From NCBI GenBank assembly GCA_029261055.1, contig JAJDCA010000068.1:5275-69274 (forward strand): a stretch of 64,000 bases of DNA. The letters are read 5' to 3'. A program made the translations under genes and the position numbers. The DNA is from Candidatus Omnitrophota bacterium (GTDB taxonomy: Bacteria; Omnitrophota; Gorgyraeia; Zapsychrales; Zapsychraceae). The first letter of the stretch is position 1. Each line of letters starts with the position of its first letter. Shown here piece by piece: positions 9,230 to 37,320 of this stretch. Below the pieces are notes generated by a model. It did no database searches. It worked only from the letters and a program-made list of their open reading frames with translations, and was not told the DNA's origin.

Positions 9230-9231
9230 TC

Positions 9232-11931: not shown

Positions 11932-11967
11932 ATGCCCCCCTTTTTTTCTAAACCATACCATGTTATC

Positions 11968-12080: not shown

Positions 12081-12095
12081 AATCAATATAATTTT

Positions 12096-12338: not shown

Positions 12339-12346
12339 AATTCACC

Positions 12347-12607: not shown

Positions 12608-12712
12608 TAAAATTCCTTTCTTTAGTAATTTATAGTATTCGCAAATTAAATTCGTTAATTTTGAAATAGCCATCAGTGTCGATTCAAGGTGACCTAAAAA
12701 TCTACGTATTTG

Positions 12713-12871
12713 TTTTGCGAATACTATATTTAAAGAATACCATTTTTTTCCTCATCGCGCTATATTTTCTATTTCTTCAACAAGGTCAATTGAAGCAAAG
12801 CCGGGGGGAGTTGGGCGGGGGTGATGTTGAGGATGACGGAGACAAGGCCAGGGAAGTTGCCGGTTTGGATG
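12713..12871. repeat. Copy R2 of the giant-gene 3'-terminal repeat (tail + stop + ~114-nt core)
   Basis: About 90% identical to 13425-13540. On the minus strand it encodes ...IQTGNFPGLVSVILNITPAQLPPALLQLTLLKK*, in frame directly after the DUF2442 stop codon. Confidence 0.9.
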
Positions 12872-13105
12872 TCAGGTATTTGCGGCTTTGTAAAGACCAT
12901 CAATGGATAAGTCCTCATCCACATCCGGCCAATGAATGCCGTATCCTGACGGGCTTACACAATAATTTTGTTTCTGCGCTAAACTTGCGGTGGTTAGTCT
13001 TTTTGAAACCTGAGAAATATCAATAGCATATTCTTTACCATCAATTTGCAACATCATGATATTTTCTTTAAAAAAAACATTTTTGACATTATGCATCTTA
13101 TTCAT
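12872..13105 (-). CDS. DUF2442 domain protein
   Basis: GYGIHWPDVDEDLSIDGLY is a DUF2442 motif. Start uncertain (MNKMHNV... or MHNV...); the full ORF runs to 13159. Confidence 0.6.
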   Translation of the reverse strand: MNKMHNVKNVFFKENIMMLQIDGKEYAIDISQVSKRLTTASLAQKQNYCVSPSGYGIHWPDVDEDLSIDGLYKAANT

Positions 13106-13355
13106 CTTTTCCTCCCATAAATTCATCCCACTGAGCCACAATGTAATCAAAATGATCAAATATAATTTTCCTAATACTTCTTTTATCTTGTGGACTCATA
13201 TTGTATCCATAGGCTTCACGAATTTCATAAATATCAACATCAAGCCAATACTTACACTCAGACTCTGCTTTTTTACAATGAATGTGTATCGGCTCATTAC
13301 CCTCATTAGAATAAAAATAAAGCCGCCACCCCATTATGACTAAAATTGTCGGCAT
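13098..13355 (-). CDS. DUF4160 domain protein
   Basis: MPTILVIMGWRLYFYSNEGNEPIHIHCKK. Internal Met start with an AGGAGA RBS. Confidence 0.65.
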   Translation of the reverse strand: MPTILVIMGWRLYFYSNEGNEPIHIHCKKAESECKYWLDVDIYEIREAYGYNMSPQDKRSIRKIIFDHFDYIVAQWDEFMGGKDE

Positions 13356-13424
13356 GTGCATTTCTCCTTTCGCTAAAAAGGATGCCATATTTTTACATAT
13401 TGGTCAAGGAGGATTTGCATGTGC

Positions 13425-13540
13425 TTATTTCTTCGACAAGGTCAATTGAAGCAAAGCCGGGGGGAGTTGGGCGGGGGTGATGTTGAGGATGACAGGGACG
13501 AGGCCGGGGAAGTTACCGGTTTGAATGTCACGCATCTGTT
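13425..13540. repeat. R1: the 3' terminus of the giant gene, the master copy of repeats R2-R5
   Basis: Encodes ...MRDIQTGNFPGLVPVILNITPAQLPPALLQLTLSKK*. Near-identical copies lie at 12758-12871, 12011-12080 and 11412-11448; a diverged copy lies at 37321-37385. Confidence 0.9.
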
Positions 13541-16500
13541 GCTGCAGCATGGCTGGGTCCAGGTTTAGCTCTAAACCTTGCCCCTGAATCTGCATGTCCA
13601 TGCCTTGCGGGTCCAAGTTGATTCCACCGAGAGATGCCTTCGTCTTTTGATTCAGCATGGCGTTGTCTACATTTTTTAATTTTTCTTCCAAGCGCGATAA
13701 TGTCGCTTCATAATCTACTATTGATGAATTAGCTTCCATTCTAGCATCTTTACTCTTTATTGACCCATCATCTGGCATTGCTTTAAAATAATCCTTATTT
13801 TCTTGAAGCACCTTTTTAATTCCCTCAATTTCCGCCATAATTCTTTGTTTCTCCTCAAGACTTTTAAGCACTTTTTGTACAGCGGCTATCCTTGCGTCCT
13901 TTTCTACCGAAGATGCTCCTACTTCTTTTAAAGCCTTTGATTCTAATAGTTTATCTAACTTAGAATCATCGGTTAACATCGTTCGAAGAATTTTTATTTG
14001 CTCATCAATATTTTCATCCATTATTGTATCTTTTGGCAATTGCCCTTTAAGAACACCTATGGATGAATCTAAAATCAGCGTTCTCATAGATGAACGCGTG
14101 TCAATACTCACAGTTCCTCCATCGAGAGTCTTTCCTGTTACCATATCTTTTATTGTCTTCAGCACTTTTATGCTAACAATCGTTTCTGCTGTTTCTTGAT
14201 CAATAACTGACGTCTTTTGATTTTGCGTATTGTAATTTTCCTTATCGACAACTTTACTGTCTGACGCTTCCCGCCTTTTGCGCAGATCCTCCGACAATGT
14301 AGCGATGGCTTGATCCAATGTCGCAATTTCCTGATCCAGTTTCACGGACTCTGTAAGGTCGTCCTTCGCAGCAACCCGAGTCTTTCGCTTCTCTATCCGC
14401 TCCTCCATCGCCTGAACCCATTGTTTGGACAGATCAGATATTTCATCATCAACACCCTTCGAAACTTCTAATTGCTTATCTAACTCTATAGGATCCGCCC
14501 CTTGAGCTTTTAATGCCGCAAGCTCTGCTGTCCAATCATGAATATCTTTATTGGCCATGGCTTTCTTGGTTACTACAGCCAACTCACCCACTGTCAATGT
14601 ATACCCATCCCTTTCTTTTATTTTTGACTTAATTTTTGTCTCAAGTTCTTTTATTTTAAGCGTGCCGGCTTGTGTATTTGGCGCATCTTTTTGGTTCGAG
14701 GCCTTCGCCTCAAACGCGGCCTTTTCTTGCGCCAGCAACCCATCGATCTCCTTTTCTCTCTGATTCCATTCATCCTCAATCTCCATCCATTGGGCCGTCT
14801 CTTTTTTAAGGGCCTCGATTTTGACGGGGCGGTCGTTGTCCACCACGTCATCGCCGCCATCTAACGGCTCTGCGATTTGGCGTATATGGGCGTATTTGAC
14901 CTTGCCGTTTTCATCTTTATACATCTCTGCTGCCTCCAGACGATCCGGAGAAAACTCAAGGTCATAAGCTTTTATCTTAGTGTTTTTCTTAAATGAATTG
15001 TCAATTAATGTATGCACACTATTGCTAACTTCCTCGACTCCCCTTCCATCACCTTTTATAAACCCCACCCTTACACCTGCATTTATAATATGATGGCTAT
15101 TGGGTAAAAATTTTGCCACCTGACCATCCGCTGTCTCAAGGATGTCAATTTTCTTCCAATCGTTATCTCCAACCTTATCCTCCCATACAGTTCTATTAAA
15201 AGATGTCGTCACAATAATCATCTTCCCATCTTGGGACAACTCCAAATTCTTTACCTCTCTATTACCGGAATCAAATCCTTTATTATCAATAACGTTTCCA
15301 TCTTTGTCATGAAAATTAACGAATCCACTTTCCATGCCTGTTAAAATAAATTCACCATCTTTTGTAAACCTTGTAAAACTTGCATTGCCGCTTAAAAACT
15401 TACCTTTACCCGTAGTCATATCAAATAGATATTGCTTACCTTTTTCCGTCAATAGCACTACCTTGGTCGAATCTGAATTAATGTCGATGCTTTCGACTTT
15501 TTCTTCTAACCTCTTCCCGTTCACTTTAAATTCCTTTATCTCTTTGCTTTCATCCACAGGCACAATGCCTTGAAAATTGTCCGCAATAATCACTGACTTT
15601 TCACCATCCGGCGCGTCAACAATAAAACTTTTTTCGGGGTTAATTTGAATAGCGTTTGTAAATAATGGACGAGAACCCACATCATCTGGCAAAACATCAA
15701 CCCACTGCATAGAAGATTCACCACCAATCCATAAAATACGGCCATCCCCGGATAATTTCACCACAACATTTTCTACTCCGGCAGGAAAACTTAATAACTC
15801 TTCATCGGCTCCTTTAGCCGTATCGCGCACACGCCAATGTGGCGGCTTCCCCTGCCTATCCTCTCGCGTCAAAACAATCCTTCGCTTGACCGGAGGAGCC
15901 CCCTTCTTGCTACCATCCATCAGCCACGCAACCTGCACAATTTCCTCGTTATCTGGGGCCGTATACGGCTGAATCACCGTCATATCCTTCGCCGCTAAAA
16001 CCTTGACGGCGCGGGGTTGGCCGGTGGACATAAACTTAGCCACAGGCCAGACGGTTAAACCGCTCTTCATATGCGCCATGACGCGCAGAGGACCTTCGGT
16101 TGAAAATTCCAGTTTGGGCACGACATCTTTATCCACATTTTTCAAAGCATCTGGCGCCGGTAGCTCTATGCGCTGTTTTGTATCCATATTCTCCAGCCAA
16201 TATTTACCTTTACCATCCACGACAGCTAAATAAATCCCATCCGAAGACAACGCCAACGCCTTAACACCATCTTCAAACGGATCTGCTTCTCCTTTAAAAT
16301 CTCCTGTTTGCGCATACCACCAGCGCACAATGCCATCTTTTTTACTTACTGTCGCCACCCTGGTGCTGTCTAGCGAGTAGACCGGCCCTACATTCGCACT
16401 TGTATTTTTTTCTAACTCCTTCAAAGGTCTTTCATTATTAACATCCCACAACTTCGAAACCCCACCATCCTTATCCAAAATAACTATCCATTTATTATTC

Positions 16501-19500
16501 GGAGAAATTCTGGGCTGGACTTCGATTTTCAAACCTGTTTCTAACTTGGCTAACTGTAATAACGATATCTTTATCTTATCCACCGTTTGTTCGATTATAA
16601 CATCCCACACACTCACACCACCCTCCATATCAGTGGCTACTATTTTCTTAGATTCATATGCTCCAATATCTGGATATAATATCGGGTTAACAGGAACAAG
16701 CTTACTATCAGACCATTTTTTTGTAATATCATACACTTCAATTGCTTGACTAAAATATGTTATGATCACTTGATTGCTATCAGAAGAAAACCTTGCCTGT
16801 GATGGATTATCTGCCCCTAAATCTATGCTCGATTCAATATCGTTAAAATTCCACAACATCACACCAAAATCATGACCTGCCAACATTTTGGTTTCATCGT
16901 CAGAAATTTCAATCCATCTTACTTTAGAATACAATAATCTATCCAACAGGACTAATTCTCCATTACTTTCCACATCACGTATGTGCACCTTCCAAGTATC
17001 CTTGTCCATGATATTTGGATTGCCAGCACTTGGTTTCCCCGCGATAAATTCCTGCGTCACTACCTTACGTCCTTTCCAAAGATAAGCAATAACCTCCTCC
17101 CCCTCTGGCGGCGTATAATTCACAGGCATCCTCCTGTCTATCGCCCCTTTCTGCAAACCCTCTGCCTTTTGAGCATCCACCTCCGCCTGCACGGCAGCTT
17201 CGCTTTCTTCTTGTTTGCTCAAAGCCCGCTCACCTTCAACCAAAGATTCTTTTTTCTTTGTGAGGAAATCTTTTCGTGCCTCCCAATATTCACGCTCATA
17301 TTTTTGCAGCATGGCAGAATCTTGTTTTCTTAACTCTTCCTCTAATTTTTTCCTTTCTAACTCAAAAACTCTTTTTGTATCTCTTGAACCTTCACGTAAT
17401 TTCTCAAGACGTTCTATTTCACTTAAACTTGCTGAAGTTGCAATTTTTGCCAGTTTTGTTTCAAAATTCTCAACATTCCTCTGCTGTTCTGCAATTAATC
17501 CCTCAAGTTCCAAAATCCTTTTTCGAAGCCAATCCTTATTAGAAATATTACTATCAACCACGTCCTCTTCAGATTCATCTATCCCCAACATTTTATTAGC
17601 TTTTTCCAGCTCCGGATCCACCTCACTCACACCCTTTTTATAATCTGCCCTCGTCCTTCTCTGCACCCCTCTCAACTTTCGTAAGCCTGCTTCCAAATTA
17701 GTAATTTTTTTATCTATTTCCTCCTTCTCTTGATCCAGCTCCTCAACTAAAGCAGGTTTATTCCCCACGACCGCCCGGACCTTTACATTCCCTATCCGCT
17801 CTTTGATCGCCTGCACCAATTGTTTGGACAAGGACAGCATCTTTTTAAAGTTCTTGTCTTTGCCTTCCGGAATTTTTACTGGCTGATCTAAATCATTTGG
17901 ATTAAGACTTTCAATTTTGCCGACGCTAAACACCTGCTGTTTGCTTCCTTCTTTATTCCGCACCATTACCTGAAGCCTATCTGGATAAAACTGAATTTCT
18001 TCCGGATTAAATTTTATGTAACTCCAATTTGCTACTTCCCCTGTTTTAAAATTCCTCATGATAATAAGCGTAGTCGCACTGGGCGTATGGCTGCCAATAC
18101 TCAAAAAATGTTCATTGTCCGGCAAAAAATACCCGAACTTATTAACCATGTGCTTAAACTCTTCCCACGCCTTGGAATCTTGTTTTATCTTTTCACCTGT
18201 TTGCGCATCCCGTAATACCAATTTTCCATTTTCGTCTATGATTAGTAAAGTATCTTCGTCTGGGGATAAATCTGTGAACTTTGCTTCTTCCCATATGCCA
18301 AATCTACTTGGTTCTGCACCATTAATATTCCGTATCCACACCGGATACCCATCATCAGATTTACTTTTTTTAATGCTAATCACATTATTCCCGTCAGAAG
18401 ATAGCCTGGCTAAAGCAATCCCCTCCCTTCGAAAATCAGTTAATTCAATCCCTATTTCTGCTTCCATATTCCATACCCTTTGGGTATTCGATTCATCTAA
18501 CGTTAAAAGTGTTTTGTTATCTGAAGAAAGCTGTTTGTAGCGTATTTTGCCTTCTTGAGAAATTTGTGAAAATTTAGGACTTCCACTTTTTTCCCAGTGC
18601 CATGTTGTGACAATGCTTTTTTCTGTTTGACTACCTATGGGGCCCTTCCTTGATCCAATGACAATTTCTTTTCCATCGGATGAAAATGACAAGGAGGAAA
18701 TAAAACCGGTAACCTCAGTACTGTTTACAAAGGTACGCTTGGTATCATCTTCAACACTCCATACATCAACCTTATGATTTGTTGTTGATCCGGATTTTAA
18801 CGCTATTTTTGTTCCATCAGGGGACAACCGAACAACATTTTTTTCTAAAGTATCAAATTTGGGAAAAAGCTCTTTATTATCTTTCGTATCTCGAACCCTC
18901 CACTCATAAGCCTTAATAATATCTTGTGTATTAAGATCAGCTAGCTCAATTTCTTTCCACGTCAAAGCCCTCTCGCTCTCTGGCCAATAATCCACAATCG
19001 TCTCTCCGGGTGGCGCTTCATAGGCGGGGTTGATGGGAGACAGTTTAGGCGTGCCGTCCGGTTGATCTTGTTCATTTTGTTCAGCTGCTTGAACTTTTAA
19101 CGCCTCAAGTTCTTTTATTTTAGCAAGTGTGTTCGCGTCTCCCTGCGTCTCTTCCTCGGCTGATTCTTTAGGCGCCTCGCGATCAACCTTCTTTTGTATT
19201 TTCACTAATTCTGCGTCAATTCCTTTCGCCCGCGCATTTAATTCAATCTCCATCAACCGCCTTTGTTTTTCCTCTTCTTCAAGGGCCTTGATTTGGGCGG
19301 GGAGGTTATTGTCCGAGGGAGGCGCATCATCGTCAGTCGACTCTGCGATTTGGCGAATGAACACATGTTTTATTTCTCCATTTTCTGTGTATGTCTCGGC
19401 TTGTTCGAGATTGTCAGGAGAAAAAACAATGTCATCTTGAATTATTTCTCTCTTCTCATCCTTATCCTTTTTATATTCCTCCTCGAAAGGATAATCAACA

Positions 19501-28500: not shown

Positions 28501-31500
28501 ATAGGCAGCCTTATTTCATCCCAGAATTCTGTATTTTTTGGTGTAATAATGATTTCTTTGCCGGAAGGAGAAAGCTTAAAAGAATCTTTTGTTAATTCTA
28601 AATCCGGCACATTCAATTCATCCGGGCGCCAGGATGAAAAGTGCGTAATATTGCCGGCATACGTATCATTACTATCAATTTCCGCATGAAAATTAAAATA
28701 ATTTTTGATGGTGGTGAATGGACGGTACAACCAGTCTTTTTCATATTTAATTAAATGTTGAATCATAAAGGCCGTTAGCCGTGGATCCGGTGCACGTGTA
28801 AGCCGCTCCCCCTTAGAGTTGTCCGGACCATTTTCAAAAAGATCCCTGATCTTGGAGTCCCATCGCATTTGCGTGGCCAGATAACGTGGATCTAAAAGCT
28901 CCCAATCCTCAAAAATCGCGGCTTGTTGTTCGGGGCTGTATCCAAAAAAAGTCAAACGCAACTCATTGGAAATACGCACTAAATCCGTAATGTCTTGGGT
29001 AATTTTTTGTTCAAACTCCTCCCATCGATCATCATAGGTGCCTACATGTCTAGCAAATTTCAGGGCATCGGCCAATTGCCATTCAGCTTCTTCTTCGGTA
29101 GACTGCCAATGATATAAAATATTTTCATCCCGTTCCTGCATTGCCGTATTATTGGTGGTCCAATTTCCTGTAATGTTAGGCCACGGCGGATTTTCTGTGG
29201 TAATAATCCTGGACATCGGATGATCGCGCATCGTTTCAAATGTAACCATACCATCCCGCTCAACTTTCCACTCATGCGTCTTGGCGGGAATATGTGATTT
29301 GATGCCATCCCAAACACCCGGCTCATATTTATGTCGTTCATTCTCTATAATCCATCCCCCCACATGCTTCACATAATTTAATAAAGACGGTTTAAACCCG
29401 GTTGTCCCATTTTGCAAGGTCCGTGTCCCACGCGCAAGCCCTTCATCGGTTGCATCTTCATTACCGGTTTCTGAATACGTCGGCATATTAATTAACCGGG
29501 CTGCCGCAGACGGCATTTTGGTTTTGGCTAAACCCGGGCCTCCGGACAAAGTAACGGTCTGCCCTTCCCATGAGTCGGACATGCTATCCTGACTAACGGT
29601 TAAATCATACAACACCTGCCATGAACTTTTTTCCCGTTCAATAATCAAAACCCTTTTTTCCTGCCGGTTAAACGCCAAAATACGATTTGAATCTTGTTCA
29701 TAAAAATACCATTGCGTCAAATCCAAACCTTTCAAATCACCTAAACCTTGAAAATCACCATTCTCCTGACTGAGTAAAACCTTTTCTGAACTCTGTTCTA
29801 GTTTCACCTGTAACTTCTGAGTGTTTTCATACACCCCTTGATTTTCAACCATATGATCTGCGGAATCAAAAGCATGCAGGAATTTTAAATATCCATCCTC
29901 TTTATTTTCTTCCATCACCTCCAATTTTCCATCCTCAATACCATGAATAAAATATTTACCATCGGTGGAATAATCTGTGGGTGACCGTTGATCCGGCCGA
30001 TGTGTCGCCAAAAGAATATTAATTATTTTATCTTCATTAGCCTCTGTATCTTTAATCACTGTTGTCGGCACACCCATGCCACCCGGTCCCATTGGAAAAT
30101 ACAATGGATCCACACCTTCCCGTTGAAACATGAGCTTTTCTTGACCATTCACTTTTTTATTAAAAAAGTGACGATACTCTTCGGTTGTATTCAACTCTGA
30201 ATCTTCAACCACCATGGAAGCATCTTTTAATTGCAAATATTTTTGCCAATCACTGTCTGAAACAAACCCACTCTTTTCAATGGCCGTAAAAATGGCATCA
30301 CCCACTCTGGAAGGAAGCCCTGTGAAAGGAAACGGCTCAATCACCCGCTGCAACTGCCCCTTGGGTTGTTGATGCAACACTTTAGTATCCTCAACCTGCT
30401 TGGCCGTACCCATAGGGATAATAAACACATTAATGCCATGCTCTCTGGCCTTATTAATCAGCCCAAGAATTCTGGATTTTTGATTAGGATCAACATCTTC
30501 ATCCGTTAAAATAAATAAAATTTGCACGCCTTTTTTTTCGCTTCGCTCGGCCGCTGCAATCTGACTTGTAATATATTTCTCTAGATTATCGGCATAATGC
30601 GTGCCACCTCCTGCCTCCAAATTGGTCCACGCCCCATGCAATACCTTTTCTCGTTTAACATTGGGCTCTCGGATAGTCTCGCGTAATAATTGCAGATCTT
30701 TATCATCATCGGAAAAATAACCAACCTCATACCCAAGATCATCATCCACGATTACCTTGCGCATTTCATAATGTTGAAAAATAGAATCGGTCAAGACAAA
30801 GGATATGATACGTGCCATTTCAATCGGCAAATAATTGCTATTTTTTCTATCTTTCTCCCCCATGCTATAACTGCGATCAACCAATAAAGTAATATCCAAG
30901 GGTAATGGATCTTTTTTAATCGGATTATTATATCCCTGCGCACCCAGAAAAACATTAAGCGGCTGGGTCATAATCGCTCCATTGTCCAATAATTGACTTA
31001 ACTTAAAGCCGGTTGTTGCGATCAACAAGGCCTTAAACTGACGGGTTAGGCGCTTAACAAGCGTTCTAATCGTCACAACTGGTTTTCTTTTTAAAATATT
31101 TATAATGCTTAAAATTTTATTTAATGTTTTATTTTTATCGTCATATTCTGAAAATTTCTCTCTAAATTCTTTTTCATTAAAATTTTTACTAATTTGATGA
31201 TTCTCAAGAAATCCTTCTATTTCCATTTTCTCAATTAATTCTTCCCCATCAATATCCAAATCTCGAAAATGCTCCACTTGAAGAGTTCTGCCTTCGGATA
31301 TTTGCTTTTTATACCATGTTTGTAATTCGCGATGCTGCGTCTTATCCAACCCGCTTGTGGCTTCAATCTGTGCTTCTTCACGCAACTTGGCTGCCTTTAA
31401 ATCAAATTCTTTAGGTTTAATCGGTTTAATATCTGATGGCGGCAATGCTTCTTGTTTCTTTCCAGTCTCTCCTAAAGGTTTTACATCAGGCAGATTAATG

Positions 31501-34500
31501 GTATCGGGCATTTTTTGATAATTCTTTGACCTATCTTTTGCACCCTTTTGGGTTTCTCCTGCTTTAGCCGGTTCACTTTTGCTGCCTGAAGACTTATTCA
31601 TATCTTGAGATGCCTGTGAAGAAGATGTTTCCTGCTTGCCTTGCCCATCTTCTCCTCCTTTGTTATTTTTATTATCCTCGCCTTTCTTATTTTCTTTCTT
31701 CCCTGGCTCGCCTTTATCTTTTGATCCACTTAACGATTGTTGAATACCTTGAATAGATTTTTCTAATTGATGAAGGTTACGTAATACATCCCTATTGGCT
31801 CCTTGGGTTTGATCTACGCCTTTGTTAACATTATTTAAGGCCTTATTTAATTTTTCTGTTTCATCTGTAATTTGAGGCACATCCGGGGAAGGGGCATGCG
31901 TTTGCTTGACTAAGTTATCGGCAATGTGCTTAAGTTTGTTGGCCTTATCTTTCAAATTCTGTAACTTCTCTAATTGTTCCTGTGATTTTTTATCTACCCC
32001 GTTAGATAACTTTTTAGCCTCATTAGCTAACTCTGGAGAAGGCAAACCTTGTTGTATTTGAGAAACTTTTTCATTTTGCGCACTTCCCTCCCCCGCGGCC
32101 AAACGCCCTTTATTTAAAAGGTCTTGGGATTTGTCCTGAATGCCTTTTGCCTGCTGTTGAATTTCTTTTGATAATTTCTTTGAAGTATTTTTATCAGACT
32201 CACTCATTTTTCCCGGAGTAACATCCCCAGATTTCTTTTTAATATCGTCTAATTTTTTAGCAATAGTATTCGTGTTACTTGCTATAGCGTTTAATTGTTG
32301 TTCAAAATCCTTAAGCGCATTTTCAATATCATCCGTACTTTTAGGGGTAGCACCGGGTGATACCTGCCCTTGGCCCGAACCTTGAGATGAACCCTGACCT
32401 GACGATGCGGCAGATGTCTTTTGTGATGAGCCGCTACCCCCACCGGGTTGTGATAAATTTTCAAAACTCTTTTTTCCTTGTTCCATATCTTCACGAACGG
32501 CATCTTCAATGACTTTCTGAATTTCTTGCGGTAGGTTTTTACCATACTCATCAAGTTCTTTACGCTCTTCTTCTGTCAACTCTTCATAGACTTTACGAAC
32601 GATCTCTTTGGCTATTTCTTTAATCCCTTGCTTCAACTGTTCCTCTCGTCTATCTTGCTCTTCTTTCTTTTTGCGTTCATGTAGTCGTCGACGTTTCTTC
32701 TCCTTAAAAGCCTCTGCATACAATTCCAAATAAACCGGCCCGACCTTCTCATTGATAATCCTGATAATGTCCCCTTGTTTAAGTGATTCCGGTCTGTACA
32801 TCAGCTTAATCCACCCATCATCATTTACATCCTTCCCCATACTACGAACCAGCGCATCTTCCACCTGAGGATTTTTATTACGTGGATCTTTCATATTGCC
32901 TTGTTGATTTTCTTTGTAATGATATCGCAGATAAAGAAGGGAATCTAAATAACGTAAATGTAAATCGTAGGTGTTGTATTGTGCCTCCTCAATCAAAGGA
33001 TTGCCGATGTCATAACGATCCTGAAGAATCCGGCTCATCCATTTCCTGGAACCATCAAACTTTTGTTCAAAAGCTCTATGTTTAATATTCTCTGCATTCA
33101 CATCATGCCCAATGCCAGAAACCTTCGGAAAAAGAAGGGTATCCCACATCAGCAATGCATCGGGATGTTTTTTGATATCTTCATTCAAATCATCAATCAA
33201 ACCGCGTAAACCAAATTTAACACGGGAAATAGCAAGAAAGACCTGCCCCAGAGTACGGTCGCGTGCAGCCTGAAGCTTACCCTTTAAATCGTCTTTATTC
33301 TCTCCGTCATACGTTCGTGGATAACGATCTGTTTTTACATAATGCATTTGTCCCACCGAGGAATCCAACGACTTATACGTCCAAAAACCATAGGGGGCCG
33401 GTATAAATTCAACTTCCTGTTTGGCGGCTAAACGCTTGGCATATTCTTGCCATTCCTGATCGATTTTCTCTAACTCGCTAGCTAATTGAGGATTATCTTT
33501 TGTTGGATCCCCATAACGTTCATACAACACATCAAGAAAATCTTTAAACAAACGTAGGGGGTTGACGTCTTTTTGATTTTCCGACATACCCATCATAATC
33601 CCGCCCACCAAAAATCCCATCGCACGCTTTCTGGTGTATTCATCATTCAGTGCATCCTTTCGTAACCCTTTTGCTTCATAGACTTTTTCTACTTCCATCT
33701 CCAAATAATCCATCACAAAATAACCAGCCCGACGGTCTGATGTTCCAGGATGAATCATAAACCCGGTTTGTCCACTCAATCCCATTTCCTTACCTCGCTG
33801 ATACAACTCGCTAACCGCGGGTTCACCGAATTTATCAACGTCATGCGGAAGTTTTTCTTCCCCTTCTTTTAAATTCTTCCCCGCGTGCTGCACATATTCC
33901 ATCACGGATATCGCAAAGGTGATTTGCTCCCATTCAGGTGGCATTTTCAAAATTTTGTGCCCTATTTCATGAGGCAAGACAAGCCGCATCATCAGTTCAT
34001 CTTCAATTGGGCTTATGAGCACATTTCCCGTGTCCGGCGCGAATGCCCCTTTGGATTGACCAAAAGCTACGGGCATCTGCACAATAGCCGCCGCAATTTT
34101 CTTACGGCCTTCCAGATCTTTAAAACTTTCTCTCCAAAAATGCTCCGGAAGATAACTGTCAAAATTGTAGGGTTTAATGGTTTCATCTAACATTTTCATA
34201 ATTGCTTTTTCTTCAGCTGGATTATCAGATAATGCACTGGCCATTTCTTTTTGAATAGTATCAATGTGTTGTTGCGTTTTAAAAAGATGCTCCTTCTGCC
34301 CCACTCGCCGAAGCTCTTCCTTTAATACATTCATATCAAGGCCAACACCCTTTCCAGGAATATGCATTCCTACTAGCAAAGGATCGGCTATTTTACGATC
34401 AATCACATCCTCTTTAATCAAACGAAGCAAATTATCATCCGACATTTTCTTTACCGCCTGACTTAAAGGTTCCACAACTCCAATCCTGCGTTCTTGAGCC

Positions 34501-35855
34501 GCTTCAAATGCTTCGAGATTATTCTGATCTAACGCCATTAACATCTCTTGTTTTAAGGCATAATATCCCACGATCGATTCTTCCGGTGTTTTTACCTGCT
34601 CTAACATAGCATCGTCCGTTTTCACAATATCCCGTTCGAAATTCTTCAAGACACTTTCCGCTCTCACAAGACCTCGTTCATTGATCGCCTGATAATTGAC
34701 GGCCACCATGGCCTGATCTTCGAAACTTAATTGAGCAAAGTTAGTGATTTTTTGATACGCTTGATCAATCTGGTTTTCAAATTCAAACCCACCGGCAAAG
34801 TATTTGCGGGGAATAATGGTTTCGGTGGCGGCATCGTATTCTTCGCGGATGTAGTCGTAGACGCCTTTTTGGAAGGCTTCGAGGTATTGTTGGTAGATTT
34901 TTTCTTTGTTGATGTCTTCGGACTTGTCGACGCCGGCGGTCTTGCTTTGATTGACATACGCCTGTCCTAATAGTCCGTCTTTGAGTGTTCGTTTGTACCA
35001 CGTGGCGAGAATCATGGCATGGACGATTTGGCGGAGAGGCGCGAAGTGCTGACCTTCGTTAACTTCGCGTTCGATTTCGGGGAGAAGGATTTCACGGATA
35101 ATGGATGTGGTAATATTTGAATTCGTAGGGGCATGATTTATCATGCCCTTGTCTTGGGTTTGATGAATCAAACCCCTACGATCCGCGCCTTCCCTAAACA
35201 AATAATCCTCTTCCAACATCACCTTCAACCGCGACTCCACCACCCACGCGGTGCTTCCTTCTTCGTAAACAATCGCCTTCTCCGGTACGATCCAAACCTT
35301 GTTAAAGGTATTCACCGGGATATCGGTGACACCGTACTCTTCGTACGCCTTTTGATAAATTCGTTCCCAGAATTCTTCCCCCAGATCATCTTCCGGATAC
35401 ATGAGGGTGGATGTCAGTTGTTTGAGCAGATAATCCTGCGCCAGTAAATCCATACCCATTTGTGTTTGCGCTAAATCATCGGCAATAATACGGTCTTTTT
35501 CGTAAGGAGATAAATTGACCCAAAGGTGATCATCGGGAATAGTGAGGGCGGCCAGGAAATATTTGAGCAATTTGCCATATTCTTCTGTCTGGGCTTTCTT
35601 CGCAAGCACATCTTCGCCCTGATCTATCAGAAAATCCATCTGTAACGGATTCTGCAGATCCAGCTCAACCCCCATCAAAAGAGGCGGTGCATAGGCAGAC
35701 GGGCTTAAAGGCACCATCGCCCCAGGCACAGGCATGGCCGGTAATATTTGTGCAAGTCCGCTTAGAGGCATCGTCATAGTAAATATAATGACCATACCTA
35801 CAACTACACAGCGAAACGGCACACCGAATCGTTTTTTATGAATTATTCTTAACAT
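13425..35855 (-). CDS. Giant multidomain protein (~7,480 aa). Order: N-terminal signal/TM segment, HExxH motif, coiled-coil/low-complexity region, vWA domain, P-loop AAA ATPase, then three large mosaic modules of WD40/PD40-like beta-propeller repeats with coiled-coil linkers, then a hydrophobic C-terminal peptide
   Basis: Single uninterrupted 22.4-kb ORF. The ORF begins at a TTG (35873); the first ATG (35855) is preceded by an AGGA RBS. Motifs were read from the translation: HEIGH (aa 635-639), DRSYSMG...ILFILTDED (vWA MIDAS), GGPGGGKST + VLIVEE (Walker A/B), and many (I/F/L)SPDG/FSRDG/FSKDG repeats. Confidence 0.85.
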   Translation of the reverse strand: MLRIIHKKRFGVPFRCVVVGMVIIFTMTMPLSGLAQILPAMPVPGAMVPLSPSAYAPPLLMGVELDLQNPLQMDFLIDQGEDVLAKKAQTEEYGKLLKYFLAALTIPDDHLWVNLSPYEKDRIIADDLAQTQMGMDLLAQDYLLKQLTSTLMYPEDDLGEEFWERIYQKAYEEYGVTDIPVNTFNKVWIVPEKAIVYEEGSTAWVVESRLKVMLEEDYLFREGADRRGLIHQTQDKGMINHAPTNSNITTSIIREILLPEIEREVNEGQHFAPLRQIVHAMILATWYKRTLKDGLLGQAYVNQSKTAGVDKSEDINKEKIYQQYLEAFQKGVYDYIREEYDAATETIIPRKYFAGGFEFENQIDQAYQKITNFAQLSFEDQAMVAVNYQAINERGLVRAESVLKNFERDIVKTDDAMLEQVKTPEESIVGYYALKQEMLMALDQNNLEAFEAAQERRIGVVEPLSQAVKKMSDDNLLRLIKEDVIDRKIADPLLVGMHIPGKGVGLDMNVLKEELRRVGQKEHLFKTQQHIDTIQKEMASALSDNPAEEKAIMKMLDETIKPYNFDSYLPEHFWRESFKDLEGRKKIAAAIVQMPVAFGQSKGAFAPDTGNVLISPIEDELMMRLVLPHEIGHKILKMPPEWEQITFAISVMEYVQHAGKNLKEGEEKLPHDVDKFGEPAVSELYQRGKEMGLSGQTGFMIHPGTSDRRAGYFVMDYLEMEVEKVYEAKGLRKDALNDEYTRKRAMGFLVGGIMMGMSENQKDVNPLRLFKDFLDVLYERYGDPTKDNPQLASELEKIDQEWQEYAKRLAAKQEVEFIPAPYGFWTYKSLDSSVGQMHYVKTDRYPRTYDGENKDDLKGKLQAARDRTLGQVFLAISRVKFGLRGLIDDLNEDIKKHPDALLMWDTLLFPKVSGIGHDVNAENIKHRAFEQKFDGSRKWMSRILQDRYDIGNPLIEEAQYNTYDLHLRYLDSLLYLRYHYKENQQGNMKDPRNKNPQVEDALVRSMGKDVNDDGWIKLMYRPESLKQGDIIRIINEKVGPVYLELYAEAFKEKKRRRLHERKKKEEQDRREEQLKQGIKEIAKEIVRKVYEELTEEERKELDEYGKNLPQEIQKVIEDAVREDMEQGKKSFENLSQPGGGSGSSQKTSAASSGQGSSQGSGQGQVSPGATPKSTDDIENALKDFEQQLNAIASNTNTIAKKLDDIKKKSGDVTPGKMSESDKNTSKKLSKEIQQQAKGIQDKSQDLLNKGRLAAGEGSAQNEKVSQIQQGLPSPELANEAKKLSNGVDKKSQEQLEKLQNLKDKANKLKHIADNLVKQTHAPSPDVPQITDETEKLNKALNNVNKGVDQTQGANRDVLRNLHQLEKSIQGIQQSLSGSKDKGEPGKKENKKGEDNKNNKGGEDGQGKQETSSSQASQDMNKSSGSKSEPAKAGETQKGAKDRSKNYQKMPDTINLPDVKPLGETGKKQEALPPSDIKPIKPKEFDLKAAKLREEAQIEATSGLDKTQHRELQTWYKKQISEGRTLQVEHFRDLDIDGEELIEKMEIEGFLENHQISKNFNEKEFREKFSEYDDKNKTLNKILSIINILKRKPVVTIRTLVKRLTRQFKALLIATTGFKLSQLLDNGAIMTQPLNVFLGAQGYNNPIKKDPLPLDITLLVDRSYSMGEKDRKNSNYLPIEMARIISFVLTDSIFQHYEMRKVIVDDDLGYEVGYFSDDDKDLQLLRETIREPNVKREKVLHGAWTNLEAGGGTHYADNLEKYITSQIAAAERSEKKGVQILFILTDEDVDPNQKSRILGLINKAREHGINVFIIPMGTAKQVEDTKVLHQQPKGQLQRVIEPFPFTGLPSRVGDAIFTAIEKSGFVSDSDWQKYLQLKDASMVVEDSELNTTEEYRHFFNKKVNGQEKLMFQREGVDPLYFPMGPGGMGVPTTVIKDTEANEDKIINILLATHRPDQRSPTDYSTDGKYFIHGIEDGKLEVMEENKEDGYLKFLHAFDSADHMVENQGVYENTQKLQVKLEQSSEKVLLSQENGDFQGLGDLKGLDLTQWYFYEQDSNRILAFNRQEKRVLIIEREKSSWQVLYDLTVSQDSMSDSWEGQTVTLSGGPGLAKTKMPSAAARLINMPTYSETGNEDATDEGLARGTRTLQNGTTGFKPSLLNYVKHVGGWIIENERHKYEPGVWDGIKSHIPAKTHEWKVERDGMVTFETMRDHPMSRIITTENPPWPNITGNWTTNNTAMQERDENILYHWQSTEEEAEWQLADALKFARHVGTYDDRWEEFEQKITQDITDLVRISNELRLTFFGYSPEQQAAIFEDWELLDPRYLATQMRWDSKIRDLFENGPDNSKGERLTRAPDPRLTAFMIQHLIKYEKDWLYRPFTTIKNYFNFHAEIDSNDTYAGNITHFSSWRPDELNVPDLELTKDSFKLSPSGKEIIITPKNTEFWDEIRLPIHSKASFHYAGLPQEIIDWIEFADVAKDVNEVNTYLKANVGKLYLTLQLQALKIKVHFVGGPGGGKSTLAKAIVRLRNKPGEHTIEMTAQTRLDQITFQEGMVGGNSKITINALPLAMEDEHGEGNVLIVEEIAQSRDKVLSALNDVIVYDETPDPTKKDKKRKGADNFGLIALSNTPGSTSGIKGLPADLLARLPAIQFDPLPPHLMFKLLSKVSTKQLDSTGEVVRLNPRLIGMPIPKSEQEVSDVEYETYPDGSVKYDGIIGMAQELNYRQSLDGTTLPKRREISVRVLVKDVKFLVDRFNYLRADGLQKIAKTGTEKSESFKKRAKTKISERIIHEQFMKAFKIEGDFDQTSPVENNILDVAGEKGLFSDDPDVDAISDFLDKESVIIQNLKIEEGKEPDTGHPELDRILQLLWTNTFESQTEQNIENLNEIIAELLSEKSWKELKKFEEQRSRMIMMKKVMDQIDFILNYRSKGETWEQHKEGNKNRMNATKDLIKNLGIQRDWSAAFFDQTMKEIEDSYDPEFTKGLDELDFSMLSIGELIWWIDFQKNDEEAVSKLKKELREKITDLKKDKLEPLEKVQILLSRKTHKDLFKDIFEHVEKKIQELKQSRPVDIERTLKDYEKVESEVKKELIKIRKPSKGVGNIEGLKKELVKEQHISDITLETGVALPDRTREKELEAEIKELELQVQGPNKQEELLTKKLIAVVNGKQALIKEIAAEAEEAKAVEAQKAEALQQGAVDTEGIINYEPLPGEEVIGFLWNGRKVVTQEKEIGASSASRNVRIRDMKNIELVTWNRGHRFDAKVVGVSDDETKILTKDDNGKFVWWDLKGEDESIDLGNYPFAKLLPDGNHVFRTTNSGRYDLFDTIDTTSPTSSSLPNDPMLHPDISPDGTKVIATDEEGMVRVKDIKSGYRFGLETGLKIQVQPTISPDNKRMVILDKDGGVSKLWDVEKEKRVLDLEKNTKAALEPVFSRDSTRVATVSKMGVVRVWDAEKGALIKATKQHKKGVKAVALSHDGRYLAVVDGEGKYWLQDLEKKGNERTELPALDALQKLEKDEVPELEFSRDGEHHVKAHVKGGLNVWPVADFMSSAPAFKPKDAEEVHSYSEDGLRVLTVEKEYAYTKMVKHYRWHVRYVKGGKELRVFEWPKAYVELSPGGTKVLMQHHRDGEIIDVKTGEKISSENVYDRVSHKWLIDDAHPEAGAGQDKNTVQGDIKVLPAKDMKVIQTYTAPDGEEIMQVAWEMDGNGDVPVKRRVVLTEAEADDPNSKVMRVRDIEQEESVDPLREDTVSKEEKSKISKDGNRFLFATPDGVFRENLEGEPRGGVRYEFGKIEQFEDSSDSNKVVVIAENFKGIAYLDGRSKETQEFKVNGEELEGEVESIDISPDSDSSKALVLTKSKALYLFNMETGEGFMLQGDSVSFAKFSRDGQFILTGSEDGRVSIKSPHTGALKIEGLQVSDAVQDIELSFNKKELIVATKGFKARYEWKPDARKWDPLSSVVVEESKFLPDGQIMTAGVLDKGKPALGVISGNGPVHRINDLGKLKNVENMQVKGLNISPDNLEQATTWQEGDQTKHVLIHEIAKDVGGGSAFSGSDLSDKIEAFKKEKKKWAAQKAKYLKQEQSFDEQLALEKKNAELAAANDLKNKVGSGKIVLEALDVYTAPPGETIVDYSPQSGLVLTEDNIVRANGKNHWIVRDVRKGGDEVNSFDLLVTNSAHLSPDGTKVAKEVWKDKPSQRKIELWEVRKIDKGKPLATSKEGEFDDFSFSEDGSRIIMEKNTKDHNDKKTIVWNWAIDDESDLLSLGNAGISVVSKLSDNNRWLFMSLKGKIGIGTLAFRNMDTKSEIQQEHSVSFAKFSRGSKYLMFVQGKNVILRDLNTGINSPPILVSAAGEIVDLELSPNGKTLLTRNKEGKLHVWDVMTGERIMPASPAWINLSITLLNLGAVFLDNEHFFGIGKSNNIGIVNARTGEIYGKLMENKFSQREAKFFPHQNQAVIFNEDRTQLQPFVVRGGGGEVLNSGKKDAAMLSIRDLIGRIAMGQGKKSAVKDLKDQFFKQINKLKEDKLSSLEKVPPLLRNETYKDLFKDMLEHVEKKIQELKQPLSGVIDMTEDDYDGELAADRVELEKVDVMLGQRISGVSNDQEQLRNIIKEKEALIAKQEEKIKKLKEAIKAEEIKDASGNGLTLQNLKNSIKHEIELKEIFEGEINQLRDFLKKQVSSGMQKHERKHLEARRALLTERIDSRVQGKQALVNKKKVAQAKAELEPENAQTTQGSKDEILPVEKIKENIESWGISENESVVEFVELNYSGFWYVVTREDIENNGEKKVVWRVWGEMRNFEGQAMIEGTPKVEETLGQYDGFTLSKEGILMMATSEGVSYKYVNKEEDDWIKINKNLDLVRGIELKKVKKGILVMSKNFQGVVSLNGGKDIPLKDMQGNMKSIEISKDGKLAAFVMFDYNVYLINIENGERIYRSQYSNINFAKFSLDDEVVLIGKIGGGISFRDSHTGEETKDVFNLPGNDSIEYLERSLDKNKLIVKAKFGKITVWKKDAISGEWTLDENYSLENAIRAKFLPDSKHIMFFRDAPEGNATAGLYLTDGLRTYKMDAPLNSDLEILELADIQLIHGQLAQMEIYNHDGRGKYVTIRNIMSKNDTSDVSKVKVLPADQMKVKESYTAPEGEVIVQHAWVEDDTGPEPVTRRVVLTLNKLQVWKVRDIARKNENDENLLRPVMSTGTLQFSKDGKKLFDAEKNGKLFVSSSLIQDDWKEIRKNLGRIHKVEDALDGNKVVIIADNFQGIVHLDGQDEKEFKDALGEEPFAKGGLKVLNVKISSDSQYAAVLTNHDNSYKFDMNTGSHLQYHANVVFSKFTEDGQVSLRGTNNGFVLFEDAKTVDFEDVKTEEKFKSINAGNEPVQDLDVVWDGKIMHKVNVKMDGRWKLWKWDENIKDWIPEENYLHGNQKILPDGKTVMVGENILSGSKRTMPTIGTYEGKSDVGFVDYPFEEEYKKDKDEKREIIQDDIVFSPDNLEQAETYTENGEIKHVFIRQIAESTDDDAPPSDNNLPAQIKALEEEEKQRRLMEIELNARAKGIDAELVKIQKKVDREAPKESAEEETQGDANTLAKIKELEALKVQAAEQNEQDQPDGTPKLSPINPAYEAPPGETIVDYWPESERALTWKEIELADLNTQDIIKAYEWRVRDTKDNKELFPKFDTLEKNVVRLSPDGTKIALKSGSTTNHKVDVWSVEDDTKRTFVNSTEVTGFISSLSFSSDGKEIVIGSRKGPIGSQTEKSIVTTWHWEKSGSPKFSQISQEGKIRYKQLSSDNKTLLTLDESNTQRVWNMEAEIGIELTDFRREGIALARLSSDGNNVISIKKSKSDDGYPVWIRNINGAEPSRFGIWEEAKFTDLSPDEDTLLIIDENGKLVLRDAQTGEKIKQDSKAWEEFKHMVNKFGYFLPDNEHFLSIGSHTPSATTLIIMRNFKTGEVANWSYIKFNPEEIQFYPDRLQVMVRNKEGSKQQVFSVGKIESLNPNDLDQPVKIPEGKDKNFKKMLSLSKQLVQAIKERIGNVKVRAVVGNKPALVEELDQEKEEIDKKITNLEAGLRKLRGVQRRTRADYKKGVSEVDPELEKANKMLGIDESEEDVVDSNISNKDWLRKRILELEGLIAEQQRNVENFETKLAKIATSASLSEIERLEKLREGSRDTKRVFELERKKLEEELRKQDSAMLQKYEREYWEARKDFLTKKKESLVEGERALSKQEESEAAVQAEVDAQKAEGLQKGAIDRRMPVNYTPPEGEEVIAYLWKGRKVVTQEFIAGKPSAGNPNIMDKDTWKVHIRDVESNGELVLLDRLLYSKVRWIEISDDETKMLAGHDFGVMLWNFNDIESSIDLGADNPSQARFSSDSNQVIITYFSQAIEVYDITKKWSDSKLVPVNPILYPDIGAYESKKIVATDMEGGVSVWDVIIEQTVDKIKISLLQLAKLETGLKIEVQPRISPNNKWIVILDKDGGVSKLWDVNNERPLKELEKNTSANVGPVYSLDSTRVATVSKKDGIVRWWYAQTGDFKGEADPFEDGVKALALSSDGIYLAVVDGKGKYWLENMDTKQRIELPAPDALKNVDKDVVPKLEFSTEGPLRVMAHMKSGLTVWPVAKFMSTGQPRAVKVLAAKDMTVIQPYTAPDNEEIVQVAWLMDGSKKGAPPVKRRIVLTREDRQGKPPHWRVRDTAKGADEELLSFPAGVENVVVKLSGDGRILWIGGESSMQWVDVLPDDVGSRPLFTNAIQINPEKSFIVDAPDGEKSVIIADNFQGIVPVDESKEIKEFKVNGKRLEEKVESIDINSDSTKVVLLTEKGKQYLFDMTTGKGKFLSGNASFTRFTKDGEFILTGMESGFVNFHDKDGNVIDNKGFDSGNREVKNLELSQDGKMIIVTTSFNRTVWEDKVGDNDWKKIDILETADGQVAKFLPNSHHIINAGVRVGFIKGDGRGVEEVSNSVHTLIDNSFKKNTKIKAYDLEFSPDRLEAAEMYKDENGKVKYAHIRQIAEPLDGGDDVVDNDRPVKIEALKKETAQWMEIEDEWNQREKEIDGLLAQEKAAFEAKASNQKDAPNTQAGTLKIKELETKIKSKIKERDGYTLTVGELAVVTKKAMANKDIHDWTAELAALKAQGADPIELDKQLEVSKGVDDEISDLSKQWVQAMEERIEKRKTRVAAKDDLTESVKLDQEIATLDQAIATLSEDLRKRREASDSKVVDKENYNTQNQKTSVIDQETAETIVSIKVLKTIKDMVTGKTLDGGTVSIDTRSSMRTLILDSSIGVLKGQLPKDTIMDENIDEQIKILRTMLTDDSKLDKLLESKALKEVGASSVEKDARIAAVQKVLKSLEEKQRIMAEIEGIKKVLQENKDYFKAMPDDGSIKSKDARMEANSSIVDYEATLSRLEEKLKNVDNAMLNQKTKASLGGINLDPQGMDMQIQGQGLELNLDPAMLQQQMRDIQTGNFPGLVPVILNITPAQLPPALLQLTLSKK
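14844..26846. repeat. Three large degenerate tandem modules inside the giant ORF (about 22344-26846, 17784-22346, 14844-17786)
   Basis: Recurrent protein blocks include KDLFKD(I/M)(F/L)EHVEKKIQELKQ, Y(T/E)(A/P)P.GE..., FQGIV.LDG... and (I/F)SPDNLEQA.... Near-identical DNA stretches occur at 26661-26720 vs 22182-22244 and at 25632-25736 vs 16440-16544. Confidence 0.8.
27954..28406 (-). other. AAA+ ATPase domain within the giant protein (Walker A GGPGGGKST at 28299-28325)
   Basis: VHFVGGPGGGKSTLAKAIV ... GNVLIVEEIAQ (Walker B-like). Confidence 0.7.
30384..30896 (-). other. von Willebrand factor A (vWA) domain within the giant protein (MIDAS DxSxS at 30867-30881)
   Basis: LLVDRSYSMGEKD ... ILFILTDEDVDPNQKSRILGLINKAREHGINVFIIPMGT. 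Confidence 0.7.
33957..33971 (-). other. HExxH (HEIGH) zinc-metallopeptidase-like motif in the N-terminal region of the giant protein
   Basis: RC of gtgccctatttcatg gives HEIGH in the context RLVLPHEIGHKIL. Confidence 0.4.
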
Positions 35856-35988
35856 ATTGGTCCTATTTAGCAAATAAAGAAGGATATGTTAAGTGTGCCA
35901 TATTTTTCAGCGCAATGCCAAAAAATGTTTTGGGTAGGATTTTAGAAAGGGAAAAAAAGTGATAGCCACTTTTTTTGTCACTATTTCT

Positions 35989-37209: not shown

Positions 37210-37320
37210 GGCTATTCTCCTTCTGCCAATAAGCATACCACTCAATTATGCACAGATCAACATATATTTGTGCACAAATATACATAATATTTTGCACATA
37301 TTTACATGGTTCAAGAAAAA

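Follow-up and report, generated by a model that had tools for sequence, protein, structure and literature searches.

The 64,000-nucleotide (nt) window analysed here, positions 5,275 to 69,274 of contig JAJDCA010000068.1 from the Omnitrophota assembly GCA_029261055.1, carries on its minus strand one giant gene. Its product joins a signal peptide, a head module and a tail motif, all three shared with a large family of proteins, to a cargo made up of an HExxH-containing domain, a vWA domain, two AAA modules (one of them probably degenerate) and a long array of WD40 propellers. That this is a genuine gene and a member of the head/tail family is in our judgement nearly certain, and the protein which it encodes is probably exported. 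The explanation that best accounts for the data as a whole is an exported, host-directed modular machine of a lineage-specific family, to which we would give an even chance of being correct. In the literature consulted on Omnitrophota giant proteins no description was found of the head module and tail motif that the family shares, of its near-lack of cysteine or of the HExxH-vWA-AAA_5x2-propeller cargo, and one may exist elsewhere; giant Omnitrophota genes are already known, and what appears to be new is the family framing.

The gene, its predicted signal peptide and its family

The giant is encoded by a single unbroken open reading frame (ORF) of 7,482 codons, which runs from a TTG to one terminal stop (13425..35873, minus strand). 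Residues are numbered from this TTG, and the first ATG is codon 7 (M7), with an AGGA element resembling a Shine-Dalgarno sequence 7 nt upstream of it. The features of the gene, and the repeats which follow its 3' end, are listed below by window position, with protein positions in amino acids (aa); MIDAS denotes the metal ion-dependent adhesion site.

13425..35855, minus strand: complete coding sequence from the first ATG, at 35855; 7,476 aa plus stop
35751..35855, minus strand: Sec-type signal peptide (M7-A41), with A and Q invariant in the 23-sequence alignment A2
34788..35750, minus strand: conserved family head module, aa 42-362, with WVNLSPYEKDRII, NTFNKVWIVPE and PRKYF(S/A)GG
32724..34586, minus strand: mostly helical domain with a conserved HExxH; candidate zincin-like metallopeptidase
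31074..32723, minus strand: K/E/Q-rich, probably coiled-coil region, with a G/S/Q low-complexity stretch from aa 1143
30369..30911, minus strand: vWA domain with an intact MIDAS: D1666-x-S-x-S (DRSYS 1666-1670), GGGTHY 1755-1760, LTDED 1789-1793
29094..29621, minus strand: AAA-1, a probable degenerate AAA_5-like module; Walker A-like GGPGLAKT, aa 2111-2118
27894..28361, minus strand: AAA-2, an AAA_5 (MoxR/midasin-type) ATPase; Walker A GGPGGGKST 2517-2525, Walker B VLIVEE 2584-2589
26280..26894, minus strand: spacer CC1, aa 2994-3198, homologous to CC2 and CC3 by self-BLAST
22404..26279, minus strand: propeller super-module 1, aa 3199-4490, types A, B and C, from Pfam, the duplication map and blade motifs
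21639..22403, minus strand: spacer CC2, aa ~4491-4745, 51% identical to CC1 over 92 aa
17877..21638, minus strand: propeller super-module 2, aa 4746-5999, types B', B and C
17121..17876, minus strand: spacer CC3, aa ~6000-6251, from self-comparison
14871..17120, minus strand: propeller super-module 3, aa 6252-7001, types A and B
13644..14870, minus strand: charged, probably coiled-coil tail, aa 7002-7410, weakly similar to CC3
13428..13643, minus strand: family C-terminal motif, aa 7411-7482, GGINLDP...NFPGLVPVILNITPAQLPPALLQL, the same motif as in relatives
12769-12897, 12013-12078 and 11391-11457, minus strand: three partial repeats, in direct orientation, of the final 50-130 nt of the giant, each after a toxin-antitoxin-type cassette

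A preliminary description of this stretch, made from its letters alone, had reported one uninterrupted ORF of ~22.4 kb, and this was borne out by the ORF scan, by translation and by two outside sources. The 7,476-aa product is an exact match to a public protein (P0357; NCBI, 202,522-nt contig), which is the sole member of its 90%-identity cluster, and an independent Logan assembly of run SRR15505515 includes a contig of 6,826 nt that matches window positions 35214-42039 with 100% identity and spans the upstream genes and the first 214 codons of the giant. The positions which that description gave for the hydrophobic segment (aa 14-40), HEIGH (635), the G/S/Q stretch (from 1143), DRSYS (1666), GGPGGGKST (2517) and the SPDG/SRDG-type blades (from ~3280 to ~6840) likewise agree with ours. 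It had also raised the concern of assembly collapse. An assembly chimera, a collapsed repeat or a pseudogene that stays open by luck would be compatible with the metagenome-assembled origin of the source contig and with the fact that the Logan assembly, made from short reads of the same strain, stops at codon 214. We nevertheless regard an artefact of this kind as extremely improbable, given the exact NCBI product, the identity with an independent assembly over 6.8 kb, the collinearity of the giant with two relatives (P0001 over aa 7-3137, P0002 over aa 431-2898) and the precise placement of family head and family tail at either end of the ORF. DNA repeats within the ORF are at most ~210 nt long and at most 82% identical, and a DNA repeat scan found no tandem arrays beyond two micro-repeats of ~2 copies, which makes misassembly by repeat collapse unlikely. 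By our own estimate stops make up ~6% of random codons at ~40% GC (guanine plus cytosine), and 7,482 open codons would then arise by chance with a probability of ~e^-480; the open frame is thus not a chance event and would not have stayed open without selection. Both the GC content and the GC skew of the gene resemble those of its neighbours.

With respect to export, the N-terminus is built like a Sec signal peptide: the basic n-region KKRFGVPFR precedes a hydrophobic core, and cleavage is predicted at GLA|Q (A41|Q42). The A and Q right after the core (A35/Q36 in A2) are invariant across the 23 sequences of that alignment. The core, aa 14-40, is the only hydrophobic segment in the giant. The only cysteine in 7,482 aa, C22, is located within the signal peptide, leaving a mature protein with none. 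Past residue 45, cysteine accounts for 0.045-0.057% of residues across 236 family proteins, 132 of which have none at all, compared with 1.49% in the 29 other ORFs of the window and 0.55% in 119 housekeeping Omnitrophota Pgk proteins. Many of the residual family cysteines are spaced three residues apart (CxxC-type). A comparison of cargo phosphoglycerate kinase (PGK) with housekeeping Pgk as a measure of cysteine purging was uninformative, the housekeeping enzyme itself having only 1-5 cysteines. Cysteine depletion is typical of proteins which cross the envelope unfolded or live outside the cell, such as type I and type V secretion substrates, flagellins and S-layer proteins. It is mainly the signal peptide together with this depletion that argues for export, and the secreted or extracytoplasmic look that the preliminary description had attributed to the giant is upheld by the single N-terminal signal-like segment, the invariant A|Q and the position of the sole cysteine inside that segment.

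The head module (~320 aa) begins in A2 where the signal peptide ends, reaches to PRKYF(S/A)GG and is 45-56% identical among the 23 sequences. No match to it was obtained in Pfam or the PDB, and its AlphaFold2 (AF2) model is mixed alpha/beta, with long helices, one long hairpin and no obvious beta-helix. At the opposite end of the protein, the tail motif, of ~55 aa in the family and at aa 7416-7478 in the giant, has the consensus GGI[DN]LNPxLLDLQIKRDGNGVPLPLxxQP...GFxPVIINITPVxNLPLLLG, with the central stretch QIKRDGNGVPLP. When aa 7-3206 of the giant were used in a protein search, 1,395 matches were returned, most of them 1,800-5,400 aa long, and those with a source name were from Omnitrophota; cargo, tail and identity counts for relatives refer to 120 listed of these 1,395. 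P0001, P0002 and P0003 aside, only the first ~350 aa are shared between the giant and the listed relatives (42-59% identity, BLASTP). The tail motif was found 13-73 aa from the C-terminus in 40 of the 120, and relatives without it may be truncated gene calls. Short family members of 420-608 aa also look like truncated gene calls, and the idea that they are minimal proteins free of cargo was rejected.

Between head and tail the relatives carry, by Pfam, a range of enzymes (PGK, glucose-6-phosphate isomerase (PGI), phosphoglucomutase, UDP-sugar pyrophosphorylase, PEP-utilising enzymes and methyltransferases) as well as response regulators, Ser/Thr kinases, HATPase_c, M48 peptidase, UbiB and HEAT repeats; a few of those listed have WD40 or AAA_5 cargo. 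The A2 profile matched 8,374 clusters at 50% identity among 1.84 billion representative proteins, 6,699 of them at E<=1e-30, and in all 150 listed proteins the match covers residues 1-~365, starting at or near residue 1. In a scan of one genome per GTDB species at least 553 head-module loci were detected. The 80 loci listed are all in Omnitrophota metagenome-assembled genomes (MAGs), with no more than 5 loci per genome among the 80, and some of these MAGs bear the placeholder label 'uncultured Planctomycetales'. Together with the Pgk encoded in the window, which is 70-77% identical to Candidatus Omnitrophica Pgk proteins, these loci bear out Omnitrophota, which the preliminary description had named as an example of lineages with giant genes. 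Tandem arrays of family genes are not the rule, a family tail motif being present within 2 kb upstream of another family gene in 2 of 61 loci.

Two further observations concern the cargo of the relatives. The tetrapeptide SSP[IV] is strongly over-represented, with 160 copies where ~6 would be expected; the copies are spread over 38 of the 120 family proteins, P0017 and P0039 among them. In the sequences read (e.g. P0017 and P0058) many of them seem to fall between enzyme domains, where they would suit linker, glycosylation or processing sites, and the only counterpart in the giant is T-S-P-V at aa 2812. The PGK cargo of P0009, P0043, P0080, P0101 and P0104 is full length and 29-39% identical to the window Pgk (39365-40558), and that of P0100 is 24% identical to this housekeeping enzyme. 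Judged by their sequences, the cargo PGKs are diverged paralogues on polypeptides which bear signal peptides.

The HExxH-vWA-AAA core and the propeller array

Three relatives match the giant well beyond the head. P0001, which is partial and recorded as a hypothetical protein of a hydrothermal vent metagenome, aligns collinearly with it at 34-38% identity; P0002 joins the alignment after an insertion of ~2,000 aa; P0003 matches aa 507-1919. Catalytic and MIDAS motifs are kept in all three at 31-38% identity.

The HExxH motif reads HEIGH at aa 635-639 (33957-33971) and is invariant, together with a W-E ten residues past the second His, in the giant, P0001, P0002 and P0003. No peptidase match for the region was obtained with Pfam (four members) or in a PDB profile search. 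The AF2 model of the region is weak (predicted TM-score 0.48, with the motif in a low-confidence stretch), and the list returned for it by Foldseek is headed by the helical zincins ACE2/ACE, M32 and M61, with a best E of 0.6 that is not significant. The domain is a possible metallopeptidase: of the earlier HExxH claim the motif stands, in four proteins, and a peptidase assignment by a hidden Markov model or a significant fold match was not obtained. The K/E/Q-rich region which follows consists to 44% of K, E, Q, D and R, compared with 36% in the whole protein.

For the vWA domain (PF00092, aa ~1660-1831) the Pfam score was 22.5 bits, under the cut-off of 23.8 (E=1.5e-4), and a four-sequence profile searched against the PDB matched the VWA domain of CaV alpha2delta-1 at E=1.2e-3, with weaker matches to collagen VI and integrin I-domains. 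The DxSxS, the Thr in GGGTHY and the Asp in LTDED are conserved in four relatives. The vWA domain of the preliminary description therefore holds with respect to its MIDAS positions, with a Pfam score just short of the cut-off and PDB profile support of only ~1e-3.

The P-loop AAA ATPase which had been proposed is on firmer ground. AAA_5 (PF07728, aa ~2515-2645) scored 36.5 bits against a cut-off of 22, and a three-sequence profile of aa 2060-2790 matched midasin (6or5, E=5e-16), CbbQ (2.5e-5) and NorQ (1.6e-4) in the PDB. Both AAA modules align to midasin AAA modules, AAA-1 weakly and also to the P-loop region of CbbQ. The GKST and the Walker B Glu of AAA-2 are conserved in P0001 and P0002. 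In AAA-1, which received no Pfam call, the Walker A is GKS in P0001 and a degenerate GKD in P0002. The suggested resemblance to MoxR/vWA and midasin-like pairings is supported by these matches. All the features in the original domain list are present, and what it had overlooked are the degenerate AAA-1, the family ends and the 3'-end repeats downstream. Searches of the PDB with single sequences of the AAA and vWA regions gave nothing informative, an NCBIfam search of the giant added nothing, and the only Pfam results for the first 2,494 aa were VWA and a glycosyl-hydrolase match below threshold. When metagenomes were scanned with the profile of the AAA region, only the P0002 contig was matched; the HExxH-vWA-AAA core is rare.

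From aa ~3200 to ~7000, Pfam scores exceeded their cut-offs for WD40 (PF00400; 43.6 vs 27), the NUP159/214 propeller (44.9 vs 29.6) and ANAPC4_WD40 (33.7-33.8 vs 22.9), and ~38 blade-type motifs were counted. Internal duplication sorts the array into type A copies at 3158-3555 and 6200-6618 (45-55% identical), type B copies at 3678-4046, 5123-5510 and 6623-7001 with a weaker copy at 4812-5111, and type C copies at 4124-4490 and 5618-5999. The three mosaic modules of WD40/PD40-like repeats parted by coiled coils that had been described are accordingly recovered, in the order A-B-C, B'-B-C and A-B; in the self-comparison the homologous spacers lie at aa 2994-3198, 4487-4745 and 6051-6251. The ~4,000 aa correspond to roughly eight to nine WD40 propellers, with spacers of ~200-250 aa.

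The core and the propellers, fused in the giant, are separate neighbours on the JGI contig Ga0206958_1007 (3300021016; locus L081). There P0002 (5,348 aa, 7203-23249) carries the HExxH-vWA-AAA core and ends in the tail motif, and 7 nt after it comes a family protein of at least 3,930 aa (23256-31249), which has a signal peptide and head module of its own, followed by WD40 propellers. This arrangement points to a functional link between core and propellers and argues against a chimera in the giant. The possibility that the WD40 gene is the severed tail of a split orthologue was rejected on account of its own signal peptide and head module.

Function, rival explanations and known systems

Omnitrophota are described as ultra-small bacteria that depend on hosts or live as predators and have many giant exported proteins (PMC10066038; 10.1101/2023.11.21.568195; 10.64898/2026.06.07.730766), and RNA of a cultured member has been seen inside prey cells (PMC13153191). 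Delivery to a partner cell would fit this lifestyle and this finding. The giant would be exported by the Sec route and its signal peptide removed at A41|Q42, the mature chain being free of cysteine because it travels or stays unfolded or extracytoplasmic, in the manner of type I and type V secretion substrates. Head module and tail motif would serve every family member as generic parts for handling, anchoring or delivery, and the string of propellers and coiled coils a long multivalent scaffold for binding a partner cell or its proteins. In the vWA-AAA_5 unit, as in midasin, RavA-ViaA, CbbQO and NorQD, the MIDAS would capture a target by an acidic residue, and an AAA ring that hydrolyses ATP would pull on this target or remodel it. 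ATP is unavailable outside cells, which places an exported ATPase under some tension. The conserved ATPase motifs, and the kinases, PGK and response regulators of the relatives, suggest a destination that contains ATP, and the host or prey cell of episymbiotic or predatory nanobacteria would be such a compartment outside the producer cytoplasm. That the giant is a host-directed, ATP-driven remodelling scaffold is a reading we hold tentatively. Its extension to the whole family, as a phylum-wide platform that carries cytoplasm-type enzymes and machines into or onto the host or prey, is more doubtful.

Several points weigh against this host-directed machine. The giant is known from sequence, and it is from sequence that its cleavage and export are predicted; the avoidance of cysteine could stem from another cause. 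No secretion-system gene adjoins the giant, the window having only secG, ~2.3 kb upstream of its start, and no feature recognised in the protein points to crossing of the outer membrane or entry into another cell. A delivery or anchoring role for the head module is suggested by the architecture, the module having no recognisable fold. With respect to the core, the vWA score is under the Pfam cut-off, the HExxH domain is only a candidate protease, and ring formation would need oligomerisation because the giant has only two AAA modules, of which AAA-1 is degenerate.

The need of the conserved ATPase motifs for ATP could also be satisfied by a membrane-tethered machine in the cytoplasm of the producer, held by an uncleaved N-terminal anchor, for example a vWA-MoxR-type conflict or defence system in which the WD40 arrays are sensors and the peptidase the effector. 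Peptidase, vWA, MoxR and repeats form the repertoire of such systems, and the gene stands at a synteny break, with toxin-antitoxin pairs and an AAA_14/DUF4143 ATPase as its neighbours. Of long Omnitrophota proteins, moreover, nearly half are predicted to be membrane-anchored with a cytoplasmic bulk (Nielsen and Lui, 10.64898/2026.06.07.730766). The charges around the sole hydrophobic segment of the giant, however, predict an N-in/C-out orientation, the A|Q site is invariant across the family, a 20- to 30-fold depletion of cysteine is unexpected in cytoplasmic proteins, PADLOC defence-system models gave no match for aa 430-3000, and head and tail modules are common to thousands of proteins with unrelated cargo. 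We consider a cytoplasmic machine unlikely.

Signal peptide and lack of cysteine would also be at home in a passive surface adhesin or coat fibre, with propellers that attach and with ATPase, vWA and HExxH parts that have a structural role or are vestigial; adhesion was among the guesses of the preliminary description. The long repetitive architecture of propellers and coiled coils would suit such a fibre, vWA domains are common in adhesins, and giant Omnitrophota ORFs have generally been proposed to encode adhesins or coat proteins (PMC10066038). Such a protein would leave unexplained why relatives with only 31-38% identity still have GKST, the Walker B Glu and every MIDAS position, a conservation which argues for selection on catalysis, and the kinases, PGK, PGI and response regulators in sister proteins make no sense as a passive coat. 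This explanation, too, seems to us improbable.

Among known systems, the closest comparison is with other Omnitrophota giants. Nielsen & Lui 2026 (10.64898/2026.06.07.730766) distinguish 'tandem-repeat scaffold' (including WD-repeat) and 'multi-enzyme' classes, with the metabolic domains of the latter predicted to be extracytoplasmic; Archaeovorin and Dockerin-type proteins were described by West-Roberts et al. 2023 (10.1101/2023.11.21.568195), and giant Omnitrophota ORFs by Seymour et al. 2023 (PMC10066038). The present giant resembles these proteins in phylum, extreme length, signal peptide, repeats including WD40, cytoplasm-type Pfam domains on exported polypeptides and a proposed host or prey role. 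It differs in its length of 7.5 thousand amino acids (kAA), under the 10-30 kAA thresholds of those studies, and in having no internal transmembrane helices and no SecA-DEAD, C39, dockerin or TSP3 domains. Archaeovorins, of at least 30,000 aa, contain many transmembrane regions as well as a divergent form of the SecA DEAD helicase domain; membership was ruled out by the single hydrophobic segment and the absence of SecA, C39 and dockerin Pfam matches.

AAA_5 modules and a vWA domain with a complete MIDAS in one system are shared with midasin/Rea1, RavA-ViaA, CbbQ-CbbO and NorQ-NorD, and the mechanism likely to be common to the giant and the midasin/MoxR-vWA pairs is an ATP-driven pull on a MIDAS-bound target. 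In midasin, six tandem AAA modules make up a single ring and are accompanied by a long linker and a D/E-rich region, with the MIDAS domain at the C-terminus. The giant, with two AAA modules, one degenerate, and a vWA N-terminal to them, is not a midasin; neither a midasin linker nor a D/E-rich region was identified in it, and its vWA and AAA modules are embedded in a cysteine-free, apparently exported giant with propellers.

The giant is built on the same plan as TpsA/CdiA of two-partner secretion, MARTX and other polymorphic toxins, with conserved terminal modules around a highly variable middle, a very large size, little or no cysteine, and genomes that hold many paralogues. In sequence and fold it does not resemble these proteins, and no Pfam TPS, RTX or CPD domain was reported for it. 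In contrast to polymorphic toxins, the cargo of the giant and its relatives consists of housekeeping-type enzymes and machines. Membership of the TpsA group was ruled out, there being no TPS domain (Haemagg_act) and the head model being mixed alpha/beta without a PDB match. No Omp85-type or partner transporter was recognised among the window ORFs examined, most of which were read only by their N-terminal sequence. The nucleoside triphosphate (NTP)-dependent vWA-MoxR conflict systems with repeat arrays, reportedly described by Kaur, Burroughs, Iyer and Aravind, are like the giant in combining a peptidase-like module, a vWA, a MoxR-type ATPase, long WD40 arrays and a neighbourhood rich in toxin-antitoxin genes. 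They are multi-gene and cytoplasmic, unlike the giant, a single signal-peptide-bearing polypeptide without a PADLOC match.

In published surveys the Omnitrophota giants are sequence-unique proteins with puzzling 'metabolic' domains on exported polypeptides. The present gene indicates that part of this diversity shares a head module, a tail motif and a near-absence of cysteine, and a head shared by more than 8,000 clusters, for which Pfam has no model, makes the purpose of these giants and their way out of the cell questions that can be tested: which machinery recognises head and tail, whether the signal peptide is cut at A|Q, and where the cargo domains finally come to lie. The giant itself poses the question of where the ATP-dependent cargo of exported proteins acts. 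Its own cargo would be a rare midasin/MoxR-type remodeller, fused with its MIDAS to a propeller scaffold of ~4,000 aa on a secreted-looking protein. Were the family a delivery platform, the delivered proteins would take over the metabolism and protein complexes of the host or prey, and a new export or translocation route would recognise them by head and tail. Were its members ordinary surface proteins, the value would lie in a new domain definition with which thousands of hypothetical proteins can be annotated.

Neighbouring genes and 3'-end repeats

Upstream of the giant and on the same strand are pgk-tpiA-secG, a PhdYeFM/PIN pair and an AAA_14/DUF4143 ATPase; downstream are two DUF4160/DUF2442 pairs, a HicB/HicA-like pair and then a purine operon. 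The pgk-tpiA-secG group (38130-40558) is kept in two related Omnitrophota genomes (L085, L086), where it is followed by an oligopeptide ABC transporter, and the giant with its small neighbours is therefore placed at a synteny break.

The three partial copies of the 3' end of the giant correspond to the segment 13427-13540 and include its stop codon, the second of them lying within the repeat 11968-12086. Their similarity to the end of the giant falls with distance, and the differences between this end and the nearest copy are mostly synonymous in the frame of the giant. A weaker copy is present at 37329-37382, after the PIN/Phd pair. The cassettes which precede the copies are DUF4160/DUF2442 (twice), HicB/HicA-like and PIN/Phd. 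The copies were considered as integron attC sites, and this was rejected because they repeat the coding 3' end with mostly synonymous differences, form no stable hairpin (DNA folding z-scores of -0.08 to +1.24) and match no Rfam family; nor did any ORF of the window prove recognisable as an integrase. The copies may plausibly have arisen when small cassettes were inserted, time and again and in a site-specific manner, at a conserved gene end.

A small toxin-antitoxin-like pair beside family genes recurs, without partial tail-motif repeats, at a second locus (L082; GCA_040960315.1, JBFOMO010000056.1). There a 1,294-aa HEAT-repeat protein with the family tail motif at its end (1475-5359) is followed by a MazE-like antitoxin gene and a small ORF without a Pfam match (5438-5976), and then by the PGK-carrying P0009.

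The AAA_14 and DUF4143 ATPase gene (35989-37245) is on the strand of the giant, ~130 nt upstream of its start, and stands between the degenerate copy of the tail motif and the giant. Upstream of pgk, and leading away from the giant, a long same-strand cluster for cell-envelope polysaccharide occupies 40664-64000. It includes a Wzy_C O-antigen ligase-like gene and, as read from N-terminal sequence, epimerases, a sugar transferase, a WecG/TagA-like protein, GT2-like glycosyltransferases and large membrane proteins.

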